A stretch of 54,480 nucleotides of DNA from a phage, in NCBI GenBank assembly GCA_018865545.1, contig GCA_018865545.1_3633.2; one strand, given 5' to 3'. The notes beneath the pieces are model-generated. The model had not been told where the DNA came from. It ran no database searches and saw nothing but the letters and a program-made list of their open reading frames with translations. Position 1 is the first letter of the stretch. The number at the start of each line of letters is the position of its first letter. This document shows positions 3,030-48,142 of the stretch, piece after piece. A program made the translations under genes and the position numbers.

Positions 3030-3285
3030 TATGATATTTTATCGCTGATATTTGTTTTCCCTGTGATATTTTTGTCACAGGGAAAGTTTCAACAACAGAT
3101 ATTTTCTTGATACTTTAAAACTCTACCAGAATTTAAAATTCTGTAAATTTAGAAAACTATTACTTATAAGCGTTTCGACACAATTTTGTTATGAAAGCCT
3201 TGTTTTTATATAAAAACCTGTTTTAGCATGAGTGGTAGGATCACACTCCATACTACCTTTATTCCTACAGATGAGCACCTCCATG

Positions 3286-3500
3286 TCCGAAAACTCGGTT
3301 CTCGATCGAAAATTCATTTTCCAGATCGTATTTGCTCCTTACGGAGAAAATTTTTTAGGGCTACAAATTTCAGTTCTCGATCAGTTTTTCGATTTCAAAA
3401 TCGTATTTGTTTTTTCTTGCGAAAAATTTCGCACGCTCAGTTCTCGATCGAGTTTTCAAAATCGAAATCGTATTTGCTCTATAGCGCGAAAAAATTTTTA
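3286..3500. repeat. three tandem ~68-bp direct repeats (iteron-like), core GTTCTCGATCG...AAATCGTATTTG
   Basis: Direct inspection: units starting near 3286, 3361 and 3428 share GTTCTCGATC(G/A), TTTTC, AAATCGTATTTG and GCGAAAAAATTT blocks. Confidence 0.6.
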
Positions 3501-3881
3501 TGGGTATCATAATTCTATCACACACTTAAACGCAAAGCAACATAAAAATTTTTGTTGAATGATAATCATTCTCATTTGCAGAATGACAGGTAGGATCGGT
3601 GTCTTATCCTCCCCCGTTGACCATCGTCGCCGTAGTTTGAAGTTTATAGCCGTTCTCGGCTTATCTCTTTGTTAGATATAGATTAACATAATTGATAAAG
3701 AAAGCAAGCGTTAATTGTAATCTTTACGTTTCTTTACAAATTTATTTTTGACGAGTTACCGGCGATCGACCTTCCAACCAGCGCCCTGGTATGTTAGCCC
3801 CGCCTTTACGCCGTGGGGATGGCGTTTCCTCTTCTGTATGTGAAACATTATAAGCCCGACCCCCGGGCTTGTCAAACATTT

Positions 3882-4224: not shown

Positions 4225-4280
4225 GAGAAAAATTTTTTAAAAATAGTATTGACAGCTAGGTAGTATAGATCTACTATGTA
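4225..4280 (+). promoter_or_regulatory. sigma70-like promoter TTGACA-17-TACTAT with AT-rich upstream element (repeat copy 1)
   Basis: TTGACA at 4249-4254, TACTAT at 4272-4277; identical copy at 9289-9317. Confidence 0.55.
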
Positions 4281-4332
4281 CACATCAAGGCGATACACCG
4301 CCACCAACCAACCTAAAAAGGGGTGAATTAAT

Positions 4333-4956
4333 ATGAAAACCATCGTTAACGCTGAGAATGTATCTTTCGATAAGTTGAGCGACGCACAAAAAGAAAAAGC
4401 CATTGATCTTATTCGTGAGCGTGAAAGAGAAAGTAATAATGATTTCTTTGCTGATAGTGTCATTGAAGACTATAAGAATGACATTTTGCCAGAGTACGGG
4501 ATCGATGACGCGGTTATCTATTGGTCAGGATTCTGGTCGCAAGGCGACGGCGCATCAATCAGCACTGACCGCGTGGATATTGAAAAATTTTTAAGAAAAG
4601 TTAAATCTTTAACAAAATTCAGAGGGATCCGCAAACTATTTGATCTCGGTGAATATAGTCCGTTATATGCAAGCATTGAGCGGGATAATTACAGCCGCTA
4701 CCACCATGAAAATACTGTTTCCGGTTACGTTGACACTATGTATTGCGGCGATTTAACGGCAAAGCAGGAAGATTTGACCAATCAGCTTGAAAACTTGTTA
4801 ACTGAAACGATCCGCGATCTGTCTTGTAAACTTTACAGAGATTTAGAATCAGCCTACGATGACCAGTTTACAGATGAAGCCATCACAGAATCAATCGAAG
4901 CCAATGATTATCGTTTTGATATTGATGAAGATGGAAAAGTTTACGCTATCGCTTAA
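4333..4956 (+). CDS. hypothetical acidic early protein
   Basis: ORF track; AAAGGGG RBS; shares its first 8 codons (MKTIVNAE) with the gene at 9373. Confidence 0.6.
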   Translation: MKTIVNAENVSFDKLSDAQKEKAIDLIRERERESNNDFFADSVIEDYKNDILPEYGIDDAVIYWSGFWSQGDGASISTDRVDIEKFLRKVKSLTKFRGIRKLFDLGEYSPLYASIERDNYSRYHHENTVSGYVDTMYCGDLTAKQEDLTNQLENLLTETIRDLSCKLYRDLESAYDDQFTDEAITESIEANDYRFDIDEDGKVYAIA

Positions 4957-5046
4957 AAGTACTTGCATTCAGTTTTAAAATAGTACTATACTACTACAAC
5001 AACAGGACGGGGAACCGCTCCCCGTCACATTCAGGAGATCATCAAA

Positions 5047-5265
5047 ATGGCTAATATCCGCACATTGTTAAAAAATGCAAAGCAAGTTTTATTTTCTGAC
5101 GACGAATATTTTAATTGCAATATCAAAGGCGTTCGGAACATCGAGGATGTAAAGGATTTATTTGGAATAAAAGGTAATGTATATCGTAAAGGGTTACACG
5201 GCAATCATCTTGAATATAAGTTAGCTGATAGTGATTATAATTTTACTTTGACAATTATTTCATAA
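5047..5265 (+). CDS. hypothetical protein
   Basis: ORF track; AGGAGA RBS; preceded by GC hairpin 5006-5028. Confidence 0.5.
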   Translation: MANIRTLLKNAKQVLFSDDEYFNCNIKGVRNIEDVKDLFGIKGNVYRKGLHGNHLEYKLADSDYNFTLTIIS

Positions 5266-5330
5266 AACCACTTGCAAAGTTATATAGTCCTGTTATACTA
5301 CCAACATTGACAAACGAGAGGTAAATAAAA

Positions 5331-5687
5331 ATGGCAATCCAGGCAATCATGTTAGAACTTACAGACTTCCGTAATACTGTAAAAAATTTAACCAAAAAAC
5401 AGGTTGATAATATTATCAACGGATACCGTAGCAAGATTAAAGATCTTCCGCTTAAACGCGATCAACATGCGGCTAATATGATGCTTGACGCTATGATCAA
5501 AAAGATGATTCAGTGCGATCTTACTCTGGCTTATGAATACGCTGGCGATCTCTTTGTAACGTATAATAAGCCAGTGCCAGGCATGTGCACCACGGAAGAA
5601 TTGCACGCCCTGAATCTAAAACAAGATGCATGGGATAATATGCGCCGCGTTATGGTGTGGGCAGAAAGCGGTAAAATTTATCAATAA
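5331..5687 (+). CDS. hypothetical protein
   Basis: ORF track; GAGAGG RBS; upstream TTGCAA-16-TATACT promoter-like sequence. Confidence 0.55.
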   Translation: MAIQAIMLELTDFRNTVKNLTKKQVDNIINGYRSKIKDLPLKRDQHAANMMLDAMIKKMIQCDLTLAYEYAGDLFVTYNKPVPGMCTTEELHALNLKQDAWDNMRRVMVWAESGKIYQ

Positions 5688-5689
5688 AG

Positions 5690-5735
5690 ATAGTTGTCTT
5701 TTAGTTATGCCGTGGTAGAATACACGGCATAGATA
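5690..5735 (+). promoter_or_regulatory. promoter TTGTCT-16-TAGAAT with palindrome ATGCCGTG/CACGGCAT flanking the -10
   Basis: Direct inspection; near-identical element at 10280-10325. Confidence 0.45.
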
Positions 5736-5763
5736 AGAGAAACTACTTATCAGAGTTTAAAAG

Positions 5764-5982
5764 ATGAAAAATATTACGGGTAAAACCGAGCTATTAAAGG
5801 CGCTTTCTGTCGGTGAGTCAGCTTTATGGGTATGCGAAAAAGATCGCCTACCGTCGCGTGAGATGGCCTTGTTTAAGGCTTTATCTTTGAAGCTGAAAAT
5901 TAAATTATCCCAAAAATTAGCGGTTGTTGCCGCACCTGGGGAAACTGCTTTCAGTGTCGTAATGGTTAAAAGGTTGGAGTAG
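5764..5982 (+). CDS. hypothetical protein
   Basis: 72-aa ORF downstream of the palindromic promoter; weak RBS. Confidence 0.4.
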   Translation: MKNITGKTELLKALSVGESALWVCEKDRLPSREMALFKALSLKLKIKLSQKLAVVAAPGETAFSVVMVKRLE

Positions 5983-6067
5983 AAAAAATTAAAAATTATA
6001 TTGACAAGCAAAACAGCAAAAATTAAACTTACACACAGTTAAACAAACAATATTAACGAGGTAAATC

Positions 6068-6439
6068 ATGAAACAGTTAACCGCTTCCCAAAAAGCAATG
6101 ATCCGTGAGTATGTTTTAAACTCTCTTTCTTTCGATATTGAATCGGGTAGCGAGCAAGATCAGATCAAAGAATTAAAAAACCGATTTGAATCTGAATACT
6201 GGTACGATAGCAACAAGAAACGCTATCAAAATGATAAAGTACAAGGCCTCAAAAATTGGTTGCAAGGTTTGCCGAGTGGTGTTAATATCGATTTCACTTA
6301 TTACGATATTGAGCAACGCCTTAAAGATTTTGGGGTCATCACCGAGACGACCAGAGAAAACACTATTGAAAAATATATCTCTGAGTGGTGGGATCTGGTA
6401 GCGCCGTTTTATGCTGGGCTAATCGTCAACTTAAAATAA
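6068..6439 (+). CDS. hypothetical protein
   Basis: ORF track; GAGG RBS; upstream TTGACA-17-TAAACT. Confidence 0.55.
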   Translation: MKQLTASQKAMIREYVLNSLSFDIESGSEQDQIKELKNRFESEYWYDSNKKRYQNDKVQGLKNWLQGLPSGVNIDFTYYDIEQRLKDFGVITETTRENTIEKYISEWWDLVAPFYAGLIVNLK

Positions 6440-6516
6440 TTATTGCAAACTATCTAAAACTGGTTTAAATTAAAGGGAGTGAGTTTATCACTCCCAACAT
6501 GAAAGAGGTTAATCAA

Positions 6517-6828
6517 ATGAATAGTTATTTTGCTACTCGTTCACTTGCACGCATTGCAGCGAAAGAAACAGGCGGCAAAGTTTTAGATAATGGTAAAGAT
6601 GCGCCTATCGGTAAACGTTGGCAGGTTATCCCTGGCTATGTTGTTGAAGCCGTCCAGGATACAGCAAAACAACGCGCCGAGATGGAGAATAAACCAGTAG
6701 TTACCTTGTCCATTGCTAAGCGTAGCAATGTAGCGAATCAAGCCCGTAAGGCGCTTTATTACGCCATCAATTACGCAAAAAATAATAAAATTGTTCCAGT
6801 TTATCATAAGCGTTCATTTAAGAAATAA
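6517..6828 (+). CDS. hypothetical protein
   Basis: ORF track 6499..6828; start moved to ATG6517 behind AAGAGG RBS; hairpin 6473-6493 upstream. Confidence 0.5.
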   Translation: MNSYFATRSLARIAAKETGGKVLDNGKDAPIGKRWQVIPGYVVEAVQDTAKQRAEMENKPVVTLSIAKRSNVANQARKALYYAINYAKNNKIVPVYHKRSFKK

Positions 6829-6897
6829 TTTTTAATTAGATAAAAAGCGCCCTAAGAAATGGGCGCTAAACAAAAACACTTAAAGAGGTAAATTATT

Positions 6898-7248
6898 ATG
6901 GCCAGCATTGTAGAAGTTTTCAAAAAAGCCGTAGAAAATAAAAACGCTGAATTGTCTTTAGTATCTCTGGATTTTACTGATGCTTACGGTAACACTTATT
7001 TTGTTTACGAGCTTGCTTTTACTTGTCCTGAATTGAAAACATGGGAAACATTGCATAAATCTCGCGATCTGCAATATGGATATGGCGATCACGTTTTAAC
7101 TGTTGCAATGAAAGACCTTGCAATCATTACCGGGATGGGATCGGACGCTGTATATATTACCCGTTGGGCACACGATAACGATTTAAAAATCAGTGTCAAC
7201 AAGCGCACCAATTGCCGCAAAAAAGATCTAAAACAGTTCATCGCTTAA
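6898..7248 (+). CDS. hypothetical protein
   Basis: ORF track; AAGAGGT RBS; hairpin AGCGCCC..GGGCGCT upstream. Confidence 0.55.
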
Positions 7249-7264
7249 TCATCCTGGTAGCTGT

Positions 7265-7615
7265 ATGATTCAGTTTTATATAATCATCGCGGCGCTTGCA
7301 ATTTATTTAGGATTGCATAAAAAAATATTTAGATTGATTCTCTGGTTTTACTACGAATACAGGATCAGAATGGTTTATCACTATATCGAATACTCTTTTC
7401 ACGGTGAGAGATACCACACCAGAAGATCCGGCCCATTAAATGATCTTGAGGGCAACGGTTTAATCTGTGAGGTTAAAAAGCGTGGCGGTAAAATTCTTTA
7501 CCACAAAGAGGGTACTTTTGATTATATTGATGACGTGATTAATTTTAGGCAGCAAGCCGTTGCAGATCACGCCAGCAAAATAATCAACGGCAGCTATAAA
7601 CGCAAAGCGGGGTAA
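7265..7615 (+). CDS. hypothetical protein with N-terminal transmembrane segment
   Basis: ORF track; hydrophobic N-terminus IIIAALAIYLGL; weak RBS. Confidence 0.4.
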   Translation: MIQFYIIIAALAIYLGLHKKIFRLILWFYYEYRIRMVYHYIEYSFHGERYHTRRSGPLNDLEGNGLICEVKKRGGKILYHKEGTFDYIDDVINFRQQAVADHASKIINGSYKRKAG

Positions 7616-7616
7616 T

Positions 7617-7799
7617 ATGCGGAATTTTGAAAAAATTGTTAAGGCTAATCGTCTGGAATATGGGGAAACAGACGAAAAACGGGAACGGGTAGGCAAACGT
7701 CACAAACCTAAAAAGGTTCCGAAATTGTGGTGTCCTGATAAATACGATCACAAATTAAAACAGCGTATCGCTGAAAAACAGCGACTTAACGCAAGATAG
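7617..7799 (+). CDS. small basic protein
   Basis: ORF track; Lys/Arg-rich; followed by intrinsic terminator. Confidence 0.4.
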   Translation: MRNFEKIVKANRLEYGETDEKRERVGKRHKPKKVPKLWCPDKYDHKLKQRIAEKQRLNAR

Positions 7800-7804
7800 C
7801 AGAC

Positions 7805-7830
7805 AAGGCCGGATAGTTCCGGCCTTTTTA
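7805..7830 (+). terminator. rho-independent terminator
   Basis: Hairpin AAGGCCGGA-TAGT-TCCGGCCTT followed by TTTTT. Confidence 0.6.
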
Positions 7831-8016
7831 GTGCCTGGCAGCGCCTGTAACGATTAAAAAGGCCAACGGTGGCGTGATGCACCACAAAATAAAATAGCTC
7901 GCCAGAGAGCTTTTTAGAGGCCTTAAAATCGATCCGAAAAATATTGATAAAAAATGCTTGCAATGCTTTCCAGATACTGATAGTGTTACTTCAACAAACA
8001 AAACGAGGTAACGGCA

Positions 8017-8154
8017 ATGATCGAAGTTCTTAAAAATCCTATTTTGTGTGGTATGGTTGTTTCTGTACTACTCCCGATCTCGCTGTTAGTCGTTAGCGAA
8101 ATAGATGATTTTCTTTTCAATAAAAGACTTGCCAACAAGTCAAAAACAAATTAA
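8017..8154 (+). CDS. small hydrophobic peptide (45 aa)
   Basis: Not in ORF track (under 60 aa); ACGAGGT RBS 7 nt before ATG8017; hydrophobic core ILCGMVVSVLLPISLLVV. Confidence 0.3.
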   Translation: MIEVLKNPILCGMVVSVLLPISLLVVSEIDDFLFNKRLANKSKTN

Positions 8155-8191
8155 TATAGTATCAGCATACTAACTAGCGAGGTGATTTAAT

Positions 8192-8410
8192 ATGTTTGGT
8201 TTTATTGTTCTATCTTGTTCTCTTTCTGTCACTGCTGCAAAGGTAGAATGTAACTACACTGTAAAAGAGACTTTTAATGATGAAAAGTCTTGCAATGCAT
8301 ACGAAAATAATTATAAACTAGGAGACGGGGAGCAGTTCGGGATCTGTGATGAATTAAAAGACGGGATCAAGAAAGGTGATAAGCGCCCGATCCTAGTCCT
8401 GAAAAAATAA
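8192..8410 (+). CDS. small secreted protein (putative signal peptide)
   Basis: ORF track; GCGAGGTG RBS; N-terminus MFGFIVLSCSLSVTAA resembles a signal peptide. Confidence 0.5.
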   Translation: MFGFIVLSCSLSVTAAKVECNYTVKETFNDEKSCNAYENNYKLGDGEQFGICDELKDGIKKGDKRPILVLKK

Positions 8411-8450
8411 TTTTCTAATCATGTTGATCAATTTTTAAGAGGTGAATAAA

Positions 8451-8738
8451 ATGTTTGAAGTTTTCGCGGGTATGTGTTTTTATACAGCTTTGGCAGTTCG
8501 CCAGTGTGATGATTATATCGTTGAATCATACGACGATCAGTTAACTTGCGAAATAGTCGCTAATGACTACGGCAAAAAAGATCGCTGGGTTAATCCGGCT
8601 TGTATACCATCCCCAGAGGTAGAAGCCATGCCAGAAGGGGAAGAGGTGACGGATCCAGTTGTAGCGGTATCCTCCTTTTTCGTTGACAACCTGGACGCCC
8701 AAGAATTGATCAACATGTATGTAAAAAATCAAAAATAA
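8451..8738 (+). CDS. hypothetical protein
   Basis: ORF track 8442..8738; start moved to ATG8451 behind AAGAGGTG RBS. Confidence 0.5.
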   Translation: MFEVFAGMCFYTALAVRQCDDYIVESYDDQLTCEIVANDYGKKDRWVNPACIPSPEVEAMPEGEEVTDPVVAVSSFFVDNLDAQELINMYVKNQK

Positions 8739-8780
8739 CGCTTGACGTTGATTTGTGCCACCTTATAATAGGTGGCATAG
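8738..8780 (+). promoter_or_regulatory. promoter TTGACG-16-TATAAT with palindrome TGCCACC/GGTGGCA flanking the -10
   Basis: Direct inspection of 8742-8777. Confidence 0.45.
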
Positions 8781-8828
8781 GTAAGCGAAAGCGGATCTAA
8801 ATCTTAAACAAGTTAAGAGAGGTAAATC

Positions 8829-9149
8829 ATGGAACAAGCTAATAAATTTTTCTTCCTGGCTGGGATCGTGGATAATGTGAAATGTGATTTCAAGCGTGAA
8901 AATGATAAGACGTTACTCACTTTCTGCGATATGCTTGATCATGAGAATGCCGACACGTTACGAATTGAGATCCGCACGATAACCAATATCGACAACGCAA
9001 GCCGTTTAATTTATAAAACTCATTCTATAGCCTACAGCCTAGAAACATCGACAAGCTGCCTGCAACAAGGTGAGAGCTTGCCTATTCTAAATAGTGCCGA
9101 TGTATTTGGCGCGGTTGTTGCCATTGTGAACGATGTTTTTTCCCGCTGA
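8829..9149 (+). CDS. hypothetical protein
   Basis: ORF track; AGAGAGGT RBS. Confidence 0.5.
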   Translation: MEQANKFFFLAGIVDNVKCDFKRENDKTLLTFCDMLDHENADTLRIEIRTITNIDNASRLIYKTHSIAYSLETSTSCLQQGESLPILNSADVFGAVVAIVNDVFSR

Positions 9150-9264
9150 TTGGTGTTAATCTTATGTTAGAAAATATCGTTTTTTGGTGTGGTGTCGTTC
9201 TTGCTGTTATGGTTGGCCTTCTGGCGACGATGGAGAATATTGTGATCTCAAATAACCTGGCACG

Positions 9265-9320
9265 GTAAAAAATTTTTTAAAAATAGTATTGACAGCTAGG
9301 TAGTATAGATCTACTATGTA
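9265..9320 (+). promoter_or_regulatory. sigma70-like promoter TTGACA-17-TACTAT (repeat copy 2)
   Basis: Part of the 130-bp perfect direct repeat 9268-9397 = 4228-4357. Confidence 0.55.
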
Positions 9321-9372
9321 CACATCAAGGCGATACACCGCCACCAACCAACCTAAAAAGGGGTGAATTAAT

Positions 9373-9660
9373 ATGAAAACCATCGTTAACGCTGAGATAA
9401 AAGAGGGTAACAAAATAAATATTCTAACAGTTTATGGCGAGACTGTGGAGTCAGTATCGGAGGCTATTAATAAGATTACACAAAAAATTGCAATTGAAAT
9501 ATTAGCCAGTGATCCGGCTCGTTTGTTTAATGATGTGTACCATGATGACGTATCTTTGCCGTGCTTCACTTTCAAAACAGAAAGCACGTTTGACAAAGTA
9601 AAAAAGTGTATACCTGTTCACGTCTATCTGTGCCAGGAAGATCCAGAAGATTGGATCTAA
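9373..9660 (+). CDS. hypothetical protein
   Basis: ORF track; same RBS and first 8 codons as the gene at 4333, then diverges. Confidence 0.55.
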   Translation: MKTIVNAEIKEGNKINILTVYGETVESVSEAINKITQKIAIEILASDPARLFNDVYHDDVSLPCFTFKTESTFDKVKKCIPVHVYLCQEDPEDWI

Positions 9661-9695
9661 CGGTTGACAATACGCAATGATTGCTTATAATAACC
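9660..9695 (+). promoter_or_regulatory. promoter TTGACA-16-TATAAT
   Basis: Consensus hexamers at 9664-9669 and 9686-9691. Confidence 0.5.
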
Positions 9696-9738
9696 CGCAT
9701 CAGACGGTAAGTTTTCCGCACCTAACAAAAGGCTAATA

Positions 9739-10008
9739 ATGATGAACATCTCAAAAACTACTTTCAACTTCGCTAAAAAGCGTGGGATTGAGCTTGAGCT
9801 AATCGCAGCAGATGATCGCTTGGTCCTGGCTTTTTATGAAGCTAAAAACGAATGTGAGTGGATGTTCTCTTATAATGTTAACTATGATTGCCTAACATGG
9901 CGCGGCAATATCTATCTTCCAAACGAAGTAAAAGAGGAATTACCAGCCACGATCACGACTGAGAAAAAATTACGTGAAGTTATTGACTTCATCTCTAAAA
10001 GTATCTAA
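9739..10008 (+). CDS. hypothetical protein
   Basis: ORF track; AAAGG RBS; downstream of consensus promoter. Confidence 0.5.
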   Translation: MMNISKTTFNFAKKRGIELELIAADDRLVLAFYEAKNECEWMFSYNVNYDCLTWRGNIYLPNEVKEELPATITTEKKLREVIDFISKSI

Positions 10009-10054
10009 GATTACAGGGAAAGGGGCAAAAGCCCCCTACCGCAGAAGGTATAAA

Positions 10055-10279
10055 ATGGATAAATTAACAAAGATTGAACATGAAGTTATGGATCTTGCAA
10101 GGGCTAATAGGCCATTTGACAAGATTTTCTCTAAGGAGAATAAAGAGATCTTGAAAGGTCTAACGCAAGGTCAAAAAGACGGCTTGCGCCGCTTATATCG
10201 TGAGGCGTATGACTATTTTCGCTGGTGGGAAATAGAAGAGGCTAACGCGAAAATAGAAGGCCTAGAAAATTTAGTATAA
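10055..10279 (+). CDS. hypothetical protein
   Basis: ORF track 9974..10279; start moved to ATG10055 behind GAAGGT RBS; GC hairpin 10017-10040 upstream. Confidence 0.45.
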   Translation: MDKLTKIEHEVMDLARANRPFDKIFSKENKEILKGLTQGQKDGLRRLYREAYDYFRWWEIEEANAKIEGLENLV

Positions 10280-10325
10280 AAGTAGTTGACTTTTACTTAT
10301 GCCGTGATAGAATGCACGGCATAGA
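10280..10325 (+). promoter_or_regulatory. promoter TTGACT-16-TAGAAT with palindrome GCCGTG/CACGGC flanking the -10
   Basis: Near-identical to the element at 5690-5735. Confidence 0.45.
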
Positions 10326-10374
10326 TAAGAGAGACGGCACAAGCCATTGATTAAACTTAAAGAGGTAAATTATC

Positions 10375-10776
10375 ATGAATACTTACAAAACTGTTTTTAA
10401 TTTCGACAACTTCAAAGCTATCTGTGACGATCAGATCGGTAAGTGCCGTAAAGAAAAAGGATTCTATAAGTCTTATAAATTGATTGCGGTTGTTGATGAA
10501 GAGATCACCGAAGTGGCAACGCTCAACCTGTACCACACCAACGCTACTAATTACGCTTGCCTGTGGATGCACTGGACCAATATTAAAGGTTGGGATCATG
10601 GCTATGTTGGCGGGAAAGCAAGCGGATACGGTTACGACAGGGAGGAGGCCGCGATCCATGTCGCAGCTAATAAGCTCGGTATTACTGGCAACTGGTTTAA
10701 AGGTGAACAATTGCTAGATGCGATGGCACGTCATTTTGATATGAAAGGCGCGAAGGTTATCTGCTGCAACGCGTGA
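10375..10776 (+). CDS. hypothetical protein
   Basis: ORF track; AAAGAGGT RBS. Confidence 0.55.
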   Translation: MNTYKTVFNFDNFKAICDDQIGKCRKEKGFYKSYKLIAVVDEEITEVATLNLYHTNATNYACLWMHWTNIKGWDHGYVGGKASGYGYDREEAAIHVAANKLGITGNWFKGEQLLDAMARHFDMKGAKVICCNA

Positions 10777-10823
10777 TCACTCAATAGCGGGGAATATTCC
10801 CCGCTTATAGATAGGGCATAATC

Positions 10824-11282
10824 ATGATTTACGATCTTAAATATTACGACGAATTGAGCATTGCAGCACAATTAACCGCCCGTGTCAATATTATAGCAGA
10901 CCTGGAGAATCACCACAGAAAGCGCATAGTTCAGGCTGTCGCCAGTTTTAAAAATGATCCCCATAAAGTGATTAATGACACGGAGCACATTTCACGCCTC
11001 ATAAACGGCGCAAAGGCGCTTTATAGTGTACGTCATTACGGGGATGATTACCTTATAAAGTTTATTCGTGATAATCGTTTGATCTTTACCCCTGGAGGCA
11101 GCTATATAGCCTATAGCGACGGCTTTATGATGATTATTAAGGGTAAGGAATACATCCCCACGGCCTCACAACAAAAAGCATTGAGAGCGCTTTACATCGC
11201 CATTAATGAGCGTGGCCCGTCATATCATGATTGGCTATATAGAATGCACCACAAAATAAAATTTTTTATGATTCCCGCTTGA
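10824..11282 (+). CDS. hypothetical protein
   Basis: ORF track; preceded by hairpin GCGGGGAATATTCCCCGC. Confidence 0.5.
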   Translation: MIYDLKYYDELSIAAQLTARVNIIADLENHHRKRIVQAVASFKNDPHKVINDTEHISRLINGAKALYSVRHYGDDYLIKFIRDNRLIFTPGGSYIAYSDGFMMIIKGKEYIPTASQQKALRALYIAINERGPSYHDWLYRMHHKIKFFMIPA

Positions 11283-11360
11283 CACCCTCATAAAAACGCC
11301 TTATTATCTATCTCATAAGGCGGGGAGCGGTTCCCCGCCACACTTAAGAGGTAAATAATC

Positions 11361-11750
11361 ATGCGTAACCTGGTTCATGTTTCCAACGTTGAAAAATTCC
11401 AATCTTTACAGGCTATCGTAAACGATACAGCGCCTTTTATCGTTAAAGGCTTGATCGCAAGAATGCAACAGAAAAAACCTGAAATCTGGGCTAATTATTG
11501 CCTTGATAATGATGATCAGGCCGCCGCTTTCATGGTTAGCGAACTGCTGGGAAGTGTAGGGAACATGTTACCGGAAAACATCGCAGAAGAGATCACCTAT
11601 CGTTATAATATGGCGATAACTTATCAGGAGGTTGCGCAATTTAACCTGATGGATGACGACGAACAACAGGATCAGGAAATTTACTGGGAGTATGCCGACC
11701 GTCAGGCAGCTTTTGATGAACGGTTGGAGATGTACTATAACGAATGGTAA
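11361..11750 (+). CDS. hypothetical acidic protein
   Basis: ORF track; TAAGAGGT RBS; acidic C-terminus DDDEQQDQE. Confidence 0.55.
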   Translation: MRNLVHVSNVEKFQSLQAIVNDTAPFIVKGLIARMQQKKPEIWANYCLDNDDQAAAFMVSELLGSVGNMLPENIAEEITYRYNMAITYQEVAQFNLMDDDEQQDQEIYWEYADRQAAFDERLEMYYNEW

Positions 11751-11756
11751 TAAACA

Positions 11757-11787
11757 GGCCGCATATTAGCGGCCTTTAATTTTTTCT
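11757..11787 (+). terminator. rho-independent terminator
   Basis: Hairpin AGGCCGC-ATATTA-GCGGCCT followed by TTAATTTTTT. Confidence 0.6.
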
Positions 11788-11847
11788 ATTGACAATATTA
11801 CACTAACCTTTAAAATGTTCTCTATTAAGTATCTTTAAAGGTGTAAC

Positions 11848-12027
11848 ATGCTCCAATCAATCATTGATGTTCTATCAGTCGCTAACAACGTGATGAACGT
11901 AATTACAATGATTAAACTTGTTGCGTGGTTTGTTTCCGGGGATTATCGCTATATTAAATGGCGCAAGCCAACCATAAAAGACGTAGTGAAGATCTCATTT
12001 GAAGCAATGACAGAATATTATCTATAA
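11848..12027 (+). CDS. small hypothetical protein (59 aa)
   Basis: Not in ORF track; AAAGGTG RBS before ATG11848; upstream TTGACA promoter-like. Confidence 0.3.
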   Translation: MLQSIIDVLSVANNVMNVITMIKLVAWFVSGDYRYIKWRKPTIKDVVKISFEAMTEYYL

Positions 12028-12088
12028 CGATTATTTTTTGTTGACATCCAAAAGATTTTTCAATACCATTGATCACATAAGGGCGGCA

Positions 12089-12316
12089 ATGATGCTGCCC
12101 ACAACTGAAAGAGAAATCACCATGGCGCTTAAAAAACTAACAAGTAATACACGTTGGGATGAAATCGGCGGGGAAGTATACATTTTCGCCCGTAAACCAG
12201 GTGATCAAAAATGGTCAAAGGCTTTTACTTGCCACCCTGCAACCATAGACCTGATAAAAAGGGAAGGTTTACGCGAAGCAGTAGCAAGAAATTTGCTGAT
12301 TCCTTATAAAAAATAG
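12089..12316 (+). CDS. hypothetical protein
   Basis: ORF track 12038..12316; start moved to ATG12089 behind AAGGGCGG; upstream TTGACA-17-TACCAT. Confidence 0.45.
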   Translation: MMLPTTEREITMALKKLTSNTRWDEIGGEVYIFARKPGDQKWSKAFTCHPATIDLIKREGLREAVARNLLIPYKK

Positions 12317-12382
12317 TTTGAAATTAATTTCATTATTGATAAAATCTTATATAAAACTTTAACCTAAAAGGGGTAAATTAAT

Positions 12383-12583
12383 ATGAAACGTTTTACTTAT
12401 GGTGTGGTTGGCGGTTCTGTTTCAAACCGTTTTTACAATACCGAGCGTGGTGCTAAAAATGCAGCTACCCGTGAATATGGCAATAGTGCAAATTTACAAG
12501 TTGGCTACATTAGCAAAATTAGCGGTATGTTTATTCCGGTTGCTCAACGCGGCATGTATTGCATAAACTGGATGCCAATGTAA
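12383..12583 (+). CDS. hypothetical protein
   Basis: ORF track; AAAAGGGGT RBS. Confidence 0.5.
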   Translation: MKRFTYGVVGGSVSNRFYNTERGAKNAATREYGNSANLQVGYISKISGMFIPVAQRGMYCINWMPM

Positions 12584-48084: not shown

Positions 48085-48142
48085 CTCCTCTGTCTACGTA
48101 TAAATTTAATTATAAAAATTTTATATGGTTTGTCAAGGGGTA

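Follow-up and report, generated by a model that had tools for sequence, protein, structure and literature searches.

Introduction

Promoter-early stem-loops (PeSLs), described in the T4-like phages RB49/phi1, PST and nt-1, combine a strong sigma70-like early promoter with a stem-loop that lies mostly between the -35 and -10 hexamers or overlaps the -10 (PMC2839356, PMC4122927). They stand upstream of ORFans in hyperplastic regions, one of them had terminator activity in a lacZ assay, and the roles reported for them are those of a terminator or attenuator and of a site where recombination shuffles modules (Arbiol et al. 2010, PMC2839356; Comeau et al. 2014, PMC4122927). Here we analysed a stretch of phage DNA of 54,480 nucleotides (nt), taken from NCBI GenBank assembly GCA_018865545.1 (contig GCA_018865545.1_3633.2) and called the window throughout, in which three early promoters place their -10 hexamer in the loop of a long hairpin. 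We compared these elements with their counterparts in related phages, and with modest confidence we favour, as the best-supported reading, a PeSL-like composite of promoter and hairpin that would act on read-through RNA.

The three elements resemble PeSLs in having a sigma70-like early promoter with an AT-rich upstream flank and a Shine-Dalgarno sequence after it, in carrying a stable stem-loop over a promoter box (here the -10 forms the loop), and in their setting, since they recur within the genome in intergenic gaps of a variable early region, each before a small gene whose function is unknown. Unlike PeSLs, they belong to Vequintavirinae and relatives and not to T4-like phages, and the two have no sequence relation; this is a difference of taxonomic range, not of function. 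Their two-part pairing encloses the whole promoter, from the -35 to +17, with ~21 pairs, internal loops and G.U pairs, whereas the PeSL stem is a short G-run/C-run, a type of stem absent from the present elements. There are three elements per genome here and ~50 PeSLs in theirs, and PeSL promoter and terminator activities were measured, whereas the present elements are known from sequence alone. PeSLs were found at recombination joints; here, the one insertion or deletion seen relative to phage Av-05 joins at another promoter module (9268-9397), not at an element with the -10 in the loop. The literature on the promoters of rV5, Certrevirus and Vequintavirinae offers plain sigma70-like descriptions only, and we found no prior account of these hairpins in it.

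Results

The initial annotation of the window had pointed to three promoters with the -10 inside a palindrome, and all three were located where it had placed them:

Site 1 promoter, 5694-5721, + strand: -35 TTGTCT (5694-5699), 16-nt spacer with TG at 5713-5714, -10 TAGAAT (5716-5721).
Site 1 core palindrome, 5706-5731, + strand: arms TATGCCGTG (5706-5714) and CACGGCATA (5723-5731), with the 8-nt loop gTAGAATa.
Site 3 promoter, 8742-8769, + strand: -35 TTGACG (8742-8747), 16-nt spacer, -10 TATAAT (8764-8769).
Site 3 core palindrome, 8756-8777, + strand: arms TGCCACCT (8756-8763) and AGGTGGCA (8770-8777), directly abutting TATAAT.
Site 2 promoter, 10286-10313, + strand: -35 TTGACT (10286-10291), 16-nt spacer with TG, -10 TAGAAT (10308-10313).
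Site 2 core palindrome, 10298-10323, + strand: arms TATGCCGTG (10298-10306) and CACGGCATA (10315-10323).

The arms were present as described, but their stated length was short by one base. The site-1/2 pattern, with ≤3 mismatches allowed, had 2 matches in the window and 0 in 100 shuffles, and the site-3 pattern had 1 match and 0 in shuffled sequence. Perfect arms of 8-9 bp were found at these three among 172 promoter-like sites in the window, the next best having 6 AT-rich pairs, and the window and the whole Av-05 genome each hold three such sites and no others. The placement of the -10 in a palindrome is thus real and non-random. Sites 1 and 2, separated by 4.6 kb, form a direct repeat with 79% identity over 81 nt, and all three sites have TGCC-N14-GGCATAGrTAAG in common. 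The inner stem bases are complementary yet different, GTG/CAC at sites 1 and 2 and ACC/GGT at site 3.

The promoters match the sigma70 consensus at 9-11 of 12 positions, with an extended -10 TG at sites 1 and 2 and AT-rich upstream flanks. Transcription starts were predicted at C5728/A5729 (site 1), C8776/A8777 (site 3) and C10320/A10321 (site 2) from the usual 7-nt distance and a conserved CATAG motif. That these are early promoters, as had been proposed, agrees with their near-consensus hexamers, 16-nt spacers, AT-rich flanks, position in gaps ahead of small + strand open reading frames (ORFs) and retention in relatives, and the homologous site of Klebsiella phage FBKp34 carries a promoter annotation. 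We consider sites 1 to 3 putative sigma70-type early promoters, a designation that fits everything a sequence can show.

Folding of the intergenic regions revealed that pairing runs further outward from the palindromes, which are the tips of imperfect hairpins of 55-62 nt:

Site 1 hairpin, 5687-5748, + strand: ~25 RNA pairs; RNA fold -27.7 kcal/mol (z -7.8), minus strand -21.0.
Site 3 hairpin, 8739-8793, + strand: stems of 5, 4 and 13 pairs; RNA fold -31.0 kcal/mol (z -6.6), minus strand -19.9.
Site 2 hairpin, 10282-10338, + strand: RNA fold -23.7 kcal/mol (z -6.5), minus strand -15.9.

In each hairpin the 5' arm contains the -35, the apical loop consists of the -10, and the 3' arm runs from the start site to about +17. 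Pairing joins the spacer to the discriminator and start site, and the -35 region GTTGAC(T/G) to positions +8 to +17, which read AAGAGA(A/G)AC or AAGCGAAAGC. The 21 conserved pairs, interrupted by internal loops of 1-2 nt, span about two helical turns. A search of Rfam with E up to 1 gave no match at the three sites.

Next, we looked into the conservation of the pairing. The nearest relative of the window phage is Escherichia phage Av-05 (Avunavirus, Vequintavirinae; 120,938 bp), and positions 5000-11000 of the window are 92-93% identical to Av-05, TH18 and three partial records. Related phages carry the palindromes as well, and in Av-05 and TH18 all three sites are present at orthologous positions. 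Two compensatory double changes distinguish these genomes, which are only ~8% diverged: Av-05 site 2 reads TATACCGTG/CTCGGTATA, with a G:C to A:T double change plus one T.T mismatch, and site 3 of Av-05 and TH18 reads TGCCGCTT/AGGCGGCA, with an A:T to G:C double change plus a T.G wobble.

More distant loci were fetched using homologues of the gene downstream of site 2 (10375-10776) as a handle; a search with the single downstream protein returned Av-05 only, and a six-sequence protein profile reached further. FBKp34 has ATGCCTCTT-TATAAT-AAGAGGCAT, with the stem TCTT/AAGA. CR3 has TGCCGGGT-c-CATAAT-ACCCGGCA and ATGCCGTC-gccTACAAT-GACGGCAT, with the stems GGGT/ACCC and GTC/GAC, and phiTE has a G.T variant of the latter element. 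Before the homologue of the site-2 gene, CR3 and phiTE carry GTCCCGCT-ggCATAAT-AGCGGGAC, with an entirely different stem. At another locus (L132:7390) the flanks are kept, but TAGG...CCTA stands in place of TGCC...GGCA. The genes that follow members of this cassette family in the window, in CR3 and in FBKp34 are non-homologous.

To quantify the pairing, we used a plain MAFFT alignment of 17 elements that was not fitted to any model (A2). The 21-pair structure was 87.4% paired in A2, compared with 36-44% when the partners were slid by 1-3 columns; double changes occurred at 10 pairs, and the covariation score was 0.337 (slid, ≤0.08). RNAalifold independently predicted the same long hairpin. A covariance model of 66 positions built from A2 was then searched against 606 kb of related DNA, which yielded 26 true members, from Avunavirus, Certrevirus-like phages and FBKp34; it had no match in the rV5-like loci, and in the window and the complete Av-05 genome it matched just the three known sites each. 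Its matches in the window were as follows:

5685-5750 (site 1): 75.7 bits.
8733-8798 (site 3): 79.4 bits.
10277-10342 (site 2): 76 bits.

In an alignment that, unlike A2, was fitted to the model, the 23 best model matches were 90.2% paired (slid, 37-43%), with double changes at 14 of the 21 pairs and a covariation score of 0.426 (slid, ≤0.08), values that 0 of 500 shuffles reached. Even the last base of the -35 hexamer covaried with its partner (G-C 15, U-A 8). These results indicate that the conserved feature is the base-pairing, with the sequence of the arms drifting, and that selection acts on the pairing.

Wider scans were made in two ways. In IMG/VR, TANAATNNNNGGYATAGRTAAG gave 62 loci, among which Av-05 itself was the sole true relative and the others were chance matches, and the flank-anchored pattern CGCTTGACGT-N30-42-ARCGAAAG added three more Certrevirus-like contigs. 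Among the matches listed for the latter pattern in the metagenome scan, there were chance matches only.

All three sites lie within a series of small + strand ORFs (4333-12583), each having a short intergenic gap and a promoter-like site to itself. The gaps that hold sites 1 to 3 measure 76-95 nt; each -35 starts 4-7 nt past the stop codon of the preceding + strand ORF, and the next start codon, preceded by a Shine-Dalgarno sequence, follows 42-61 nt downstream of each site. The region is a variable early one, and the genes that follow the sites are small and of unknown function:

Gene after site 1, 5764-5982, + strand: 72 amino acids, phrog_5988, unknown function.
Gene after site 3, 8829-9149, + strand: 106 amino acids, phrog_7366, unknown function.
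Gene after site 2, 10375-10776, + strand: 133 amino acids, phrog_7028, with homologues in 149 phage records.

Searches of Pfam and PHROGs assigned a known function to none of the 20 ORFs tested near the sites, the PHROGs families being of unknown function. The sole Pfam domain among the ORFs tested was in the 60-amino-acid ORF at 7617-7799, which matched the bacteriophage T7 gene 1.1 protein family (PF08200, E value = 3e-6, above the curated cut-off). The annotation of Av-05 also lists a site-specific RNA endonuclease, RegB-like to judge by its name, and an anti-sigma factor (L257 10042-10500; L256/L257, record 99601-100398), which could bear on early mRNA fate and promoter use in this phage group.

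The window holds further promoter modules. A 130-nt direct repeat of 100% identity (4228-4357, repeated at 9268-9397) covers an AT-rich flank, the promoter TTGACA-17-TACTAT, the 5' untranslated region and the first 25 nt of the coding sequence, and this module represents promoter-mediated shuffling in the window. Its copy at 9268-9397 heads an ORF (9373-9660, 95 amino acids, no PHROG match) that is absent from Av-05, and the two together look like a recent cassette insertion joined at the promoter. In CR3, 13 of 25 strong promoters have a GC-rich hairpin within the spacer between -35 and -10, so that the second PeSL layout is found there in bulk.

Other stem-loops were observed alongside these. 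The early regions of CR3 (L068/L072) and phiTE (L069/L080) have spacer hairpins in most strong promoters, for example TTGACGCCGGGAcggtTCCCGGCtTATAAT; their promoter regions fold better than random windows (P value ~0.001), and many contain the CATAG start motif. On the - strand of the window, one consensus promoter (3847-3875, TTGACA-17-TATAAT) shows this layout, with the spacer hairpin AGCCCG-ggggt-CGGGCT, and points into an ORF-poor region (~3100-3850) with three degenerate 63-nt repeats (3294-3498, 67-75% identity). TRF did not call the 63-nt repeats at 3294-3498 in the window, and the idea that the ORF-poor region is syntenic with the pseudo-ToxI locus of phiTE was rejected, the two not being syntenic. 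Two long palindromes, 2153-2177 (GCCCTGTAG/CTACAGGGC) and 3056-3085 (TTTCCCTGTGA/TCACAGGGAAA), have CCCTGT...ACAGGG in common; Av-05 and TH18 conserve both, and no T run comes after either. Similar GC-rich hairpins at 5006-5026 (GACGGGGAACCGCTCCCCGTC) and 11319-11339 (GGCGGGGAGCGGTTCCCCGCC) lie just downstream of promoter-like sites, in 5' untranslated regions, which is another position of a stem-loop relative to a promoter. Finally, at ~48100-48136 on the - strand, a promoter matching the consensus at 12 of 12 positions has 6-bp AT-only inverted repeats around its TATAAT (AAATTT-t-TATAAT-t-AAATTT) and no covariance-model match; these repeats are probably an effect of AT-richness and not the same element.

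Discussion

Our starting points are the hairpin potential, the covariation, the sense-strand bias and the association with unrelated genes, all of which we observed directly. From these we infer that an RNA-level function of the hairpin (attenuation, processing or 3' protection) is the likeliest, and likewise promoter activity and read-through RNA. As duplex DNA, each cassette would be a host sigma70 early promoter; as RNA, in read-through transcripts of the co-directional gene upstream, those 55-62 bases would fold into the long imperfect hairpin. The structured RNA could only come from such read-through, because the promoter's own transcript is predicted to begin inside the 3' arm. The hairpin would most likely insulate neighbouring early cistrons, whether by attenuating or ending the read-through, by offering a cutting site to an endonuclease (RNase III, for example), or by shielding the upstream message at its 3' end; the next gene would then be transcribed afresh from the cassette's promoter. 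A gap of 76-95 nt has to hold both a promoter and a stable stem, and using the AT-rich -10 as the loop may be the simplest arrangement for this. The cassettes would serve as portable regulatory modules before unrelated small genes.

Hairpins of similar size and shape are known from the early region of phage T7, where RNase III sites are intercistronic, about two helical turns long, with internal loops and no U-tract, and lie in a polycistronic transcript made by the host polymerase; the retained hairpin protects the upstream 3' end. The T7 sites do not overlap promoters, unlike the present hairpins, no sequence or Rfam match links the two, and cleavage of the latter is conjecture. Intrinsic terminators offer a second comparison, their GC-rich hairpin following right after a stop codon, as here; the U-tract that they have is absent here.

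Which strand forms the structure was assessed from pair types and folding energies. Across the 26 aligned elements, the structure contains 61 G.U cells compared with 16 A.C cells (43 and 15 on A2), an excess to which one invariant T.G pair contributes. In RNA folds of the window's three sites the + strand is better than the - strand by 6.7-11.1 kcal/mol, and the + strand gives the better RNA fold in 12 of 15 elements. With DNA parameters, the two strands are nearly equal (-11.8 to -14.4 kcal/mol, z -4 to -7). The G.U pairs and RNA folding energies are in moderate favour of a structure in the sense RNA.

Several findings weigh against the reading in which a promoter is joined to a hairpin acting on read-through RNA, among them the invariant T.G pair and the near-equality of the strands as DNA just given. 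A test of all strong promoters showed no strand asymmetry in promoter regions generally, with excess structure in Certrevirus only, so the sense-strand argument is confined to the class with the -10 in the loop. No U-tract follows the core or the full hairpin at any of the three sites, where the tails read AGAUAAGAGA or AGGUAAGCGA, and a terminator scan of the window did not include sites 1 to 3 among its terminator-like entries; classical intrinsic termination is for both reasons unlikely. The orthologous promoter of the rV5-like phages (Vequintavirus) is a plain one, so the hairpin would be dispensable for expressing the gene it precedes. In addition, the sequences are related to one another, and two further alignments (A3 and A4) were made by fitting to the model.

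If the inverted repeat instead acted as DNA, supercoiling could extrude a cruciform centred on the AT-rich -10, which would make the element a topology-dependent promoter switch or a hotspot for recombination or for a structure-specific nuclease. GC-rich arms do flank an AT-rich centre, DNA parameters give the two strands about the same folding energy, and a DNA hairpin predicts compensatory changes equally well. Other promoters of related phages have perfect GC-rich spacer palindromes without strand bias, and promoter cassettes are located at recombination joints. A synthetic Escherichia coli promoter was reportedly repressed by cruciform extrusion (Horwitz and Loeb, 1988), and phage N4 has hairpin promoters, with a stem of 5-7 bp and a 3-nt loop, that are read by its virion RNA polymerase; both have an inverted repeat at the promoter, as here, and extrusion could change promoter use. 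However, the perfect arms measure just 8-9 bp around a spacer of 6-8 nt, and the pairing beyond them depends on T.G pairs that become A.C mismatches on the opposite strand, the very pair types for which the counts are 61 and 16. We regard a cruciform as unlikely.

The initial annotation had suggested that the palindrome is an operator for a dimeric repressor, of phage or host, which would occlude the -10 and shut off the three early genes. The operators of LexA and of lambdoid repressors do overlap the -10, with a dyad on or beside it, and here too the -10 marks the centre of the dyad; TGCC-N14-GGCA is common to the three window sites and most relatives, sites 1 and 2 are nearly identical, and there are just three such sites per genome. 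Operators conserve their half-site, whereas here the sequence drifts and complementarity is kept: both arms change together at 14 of the 21 positions, the inner stem differs at every family member, and even the outer half-sites TGCC/GGCA are replaced, by TAGG/CCTA at L132:7390 and by GTCCCGCT/AGCGGGAC in CR3 and phiTE. A dimer reading a fixed half-site would not select for conserved complementarity, and the operator is for this reason disfavoured. The GGCA overlaps the CATAG start motif, which hairpin-free promoters of these phages bear as well, so its conservation is accounted for without any protein. TGCC and GGCA also lie 18 bp apart from centre to centre, which would not be a same-face spacing, and the pairing reaches into the -35 and to +17 and includes G.U pairs. 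Pfam found no DNA-binding domain in the 20 nearby early ORFs, a weak point since small phage repressors are often missed and the gene could lie elsewhere. On balance we find an operator improbable, although a protein may read the shape or structure of the elements. Known binding motifs compared with the sites were also set aside: a CRP-like GTG-N8-CAC core fits sites 1 and 2 only, a sigma54-like TGGCA has a spacing to GC that is off by one, with GC absent at sites 1 and 2, and the LexA box has no match at the sites.

Equally doubtful is the notion that the hairpin has no function of its own and came about incidentally as the cassettes formed or spread, for example by template switching or recombination between promoter modules, and persisted by descent. 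It would agree with the mobility of the cassettes between unrelated genes, with the 130-nt promoter module duplicated in the window at 100% identity and with the hairpin-free orthologous promoters of the rV5-like phages. Yet descent alone gives neither double changes at 14 of 21 pairs nor 90% pairing across four phage groups with different stems, and correction of quasi-palindromes could restore pairing but would not explain the constant position of the stem relative to the promoter.

Least probable of all, to our judgement, is that an extruded -10, as a single-stranded non-template loop, gives the host sigma70 polymerase a pre-melted promoter or acts as a topological off-switch; if true, extrusion would bring the N4 style of hairpin promoter to a host enzyme, and genome topology would time three early genes.

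With the composite of promoter and hairpin as the favoured reading, cassettes so far described only in T4-like phages would now extend to rV5-related phages (Avunavirus, Certrevirus and a Klebsiella phage). The compensatory changes at 14 of the 21 pairs imply that pairing itself is under selection, and they correct a natural misreading, in that an operator is not the only thing a dyad over the -10 can be. The 66-position model can be used for finding such cassettes, and the three named promoters are places where the function of the hairpin (insulation, processing or topology sensing) is open to testing with arm mutants. For annotation and phage engineering, the elements would be compact, portable units that bear both an end and a start signal.

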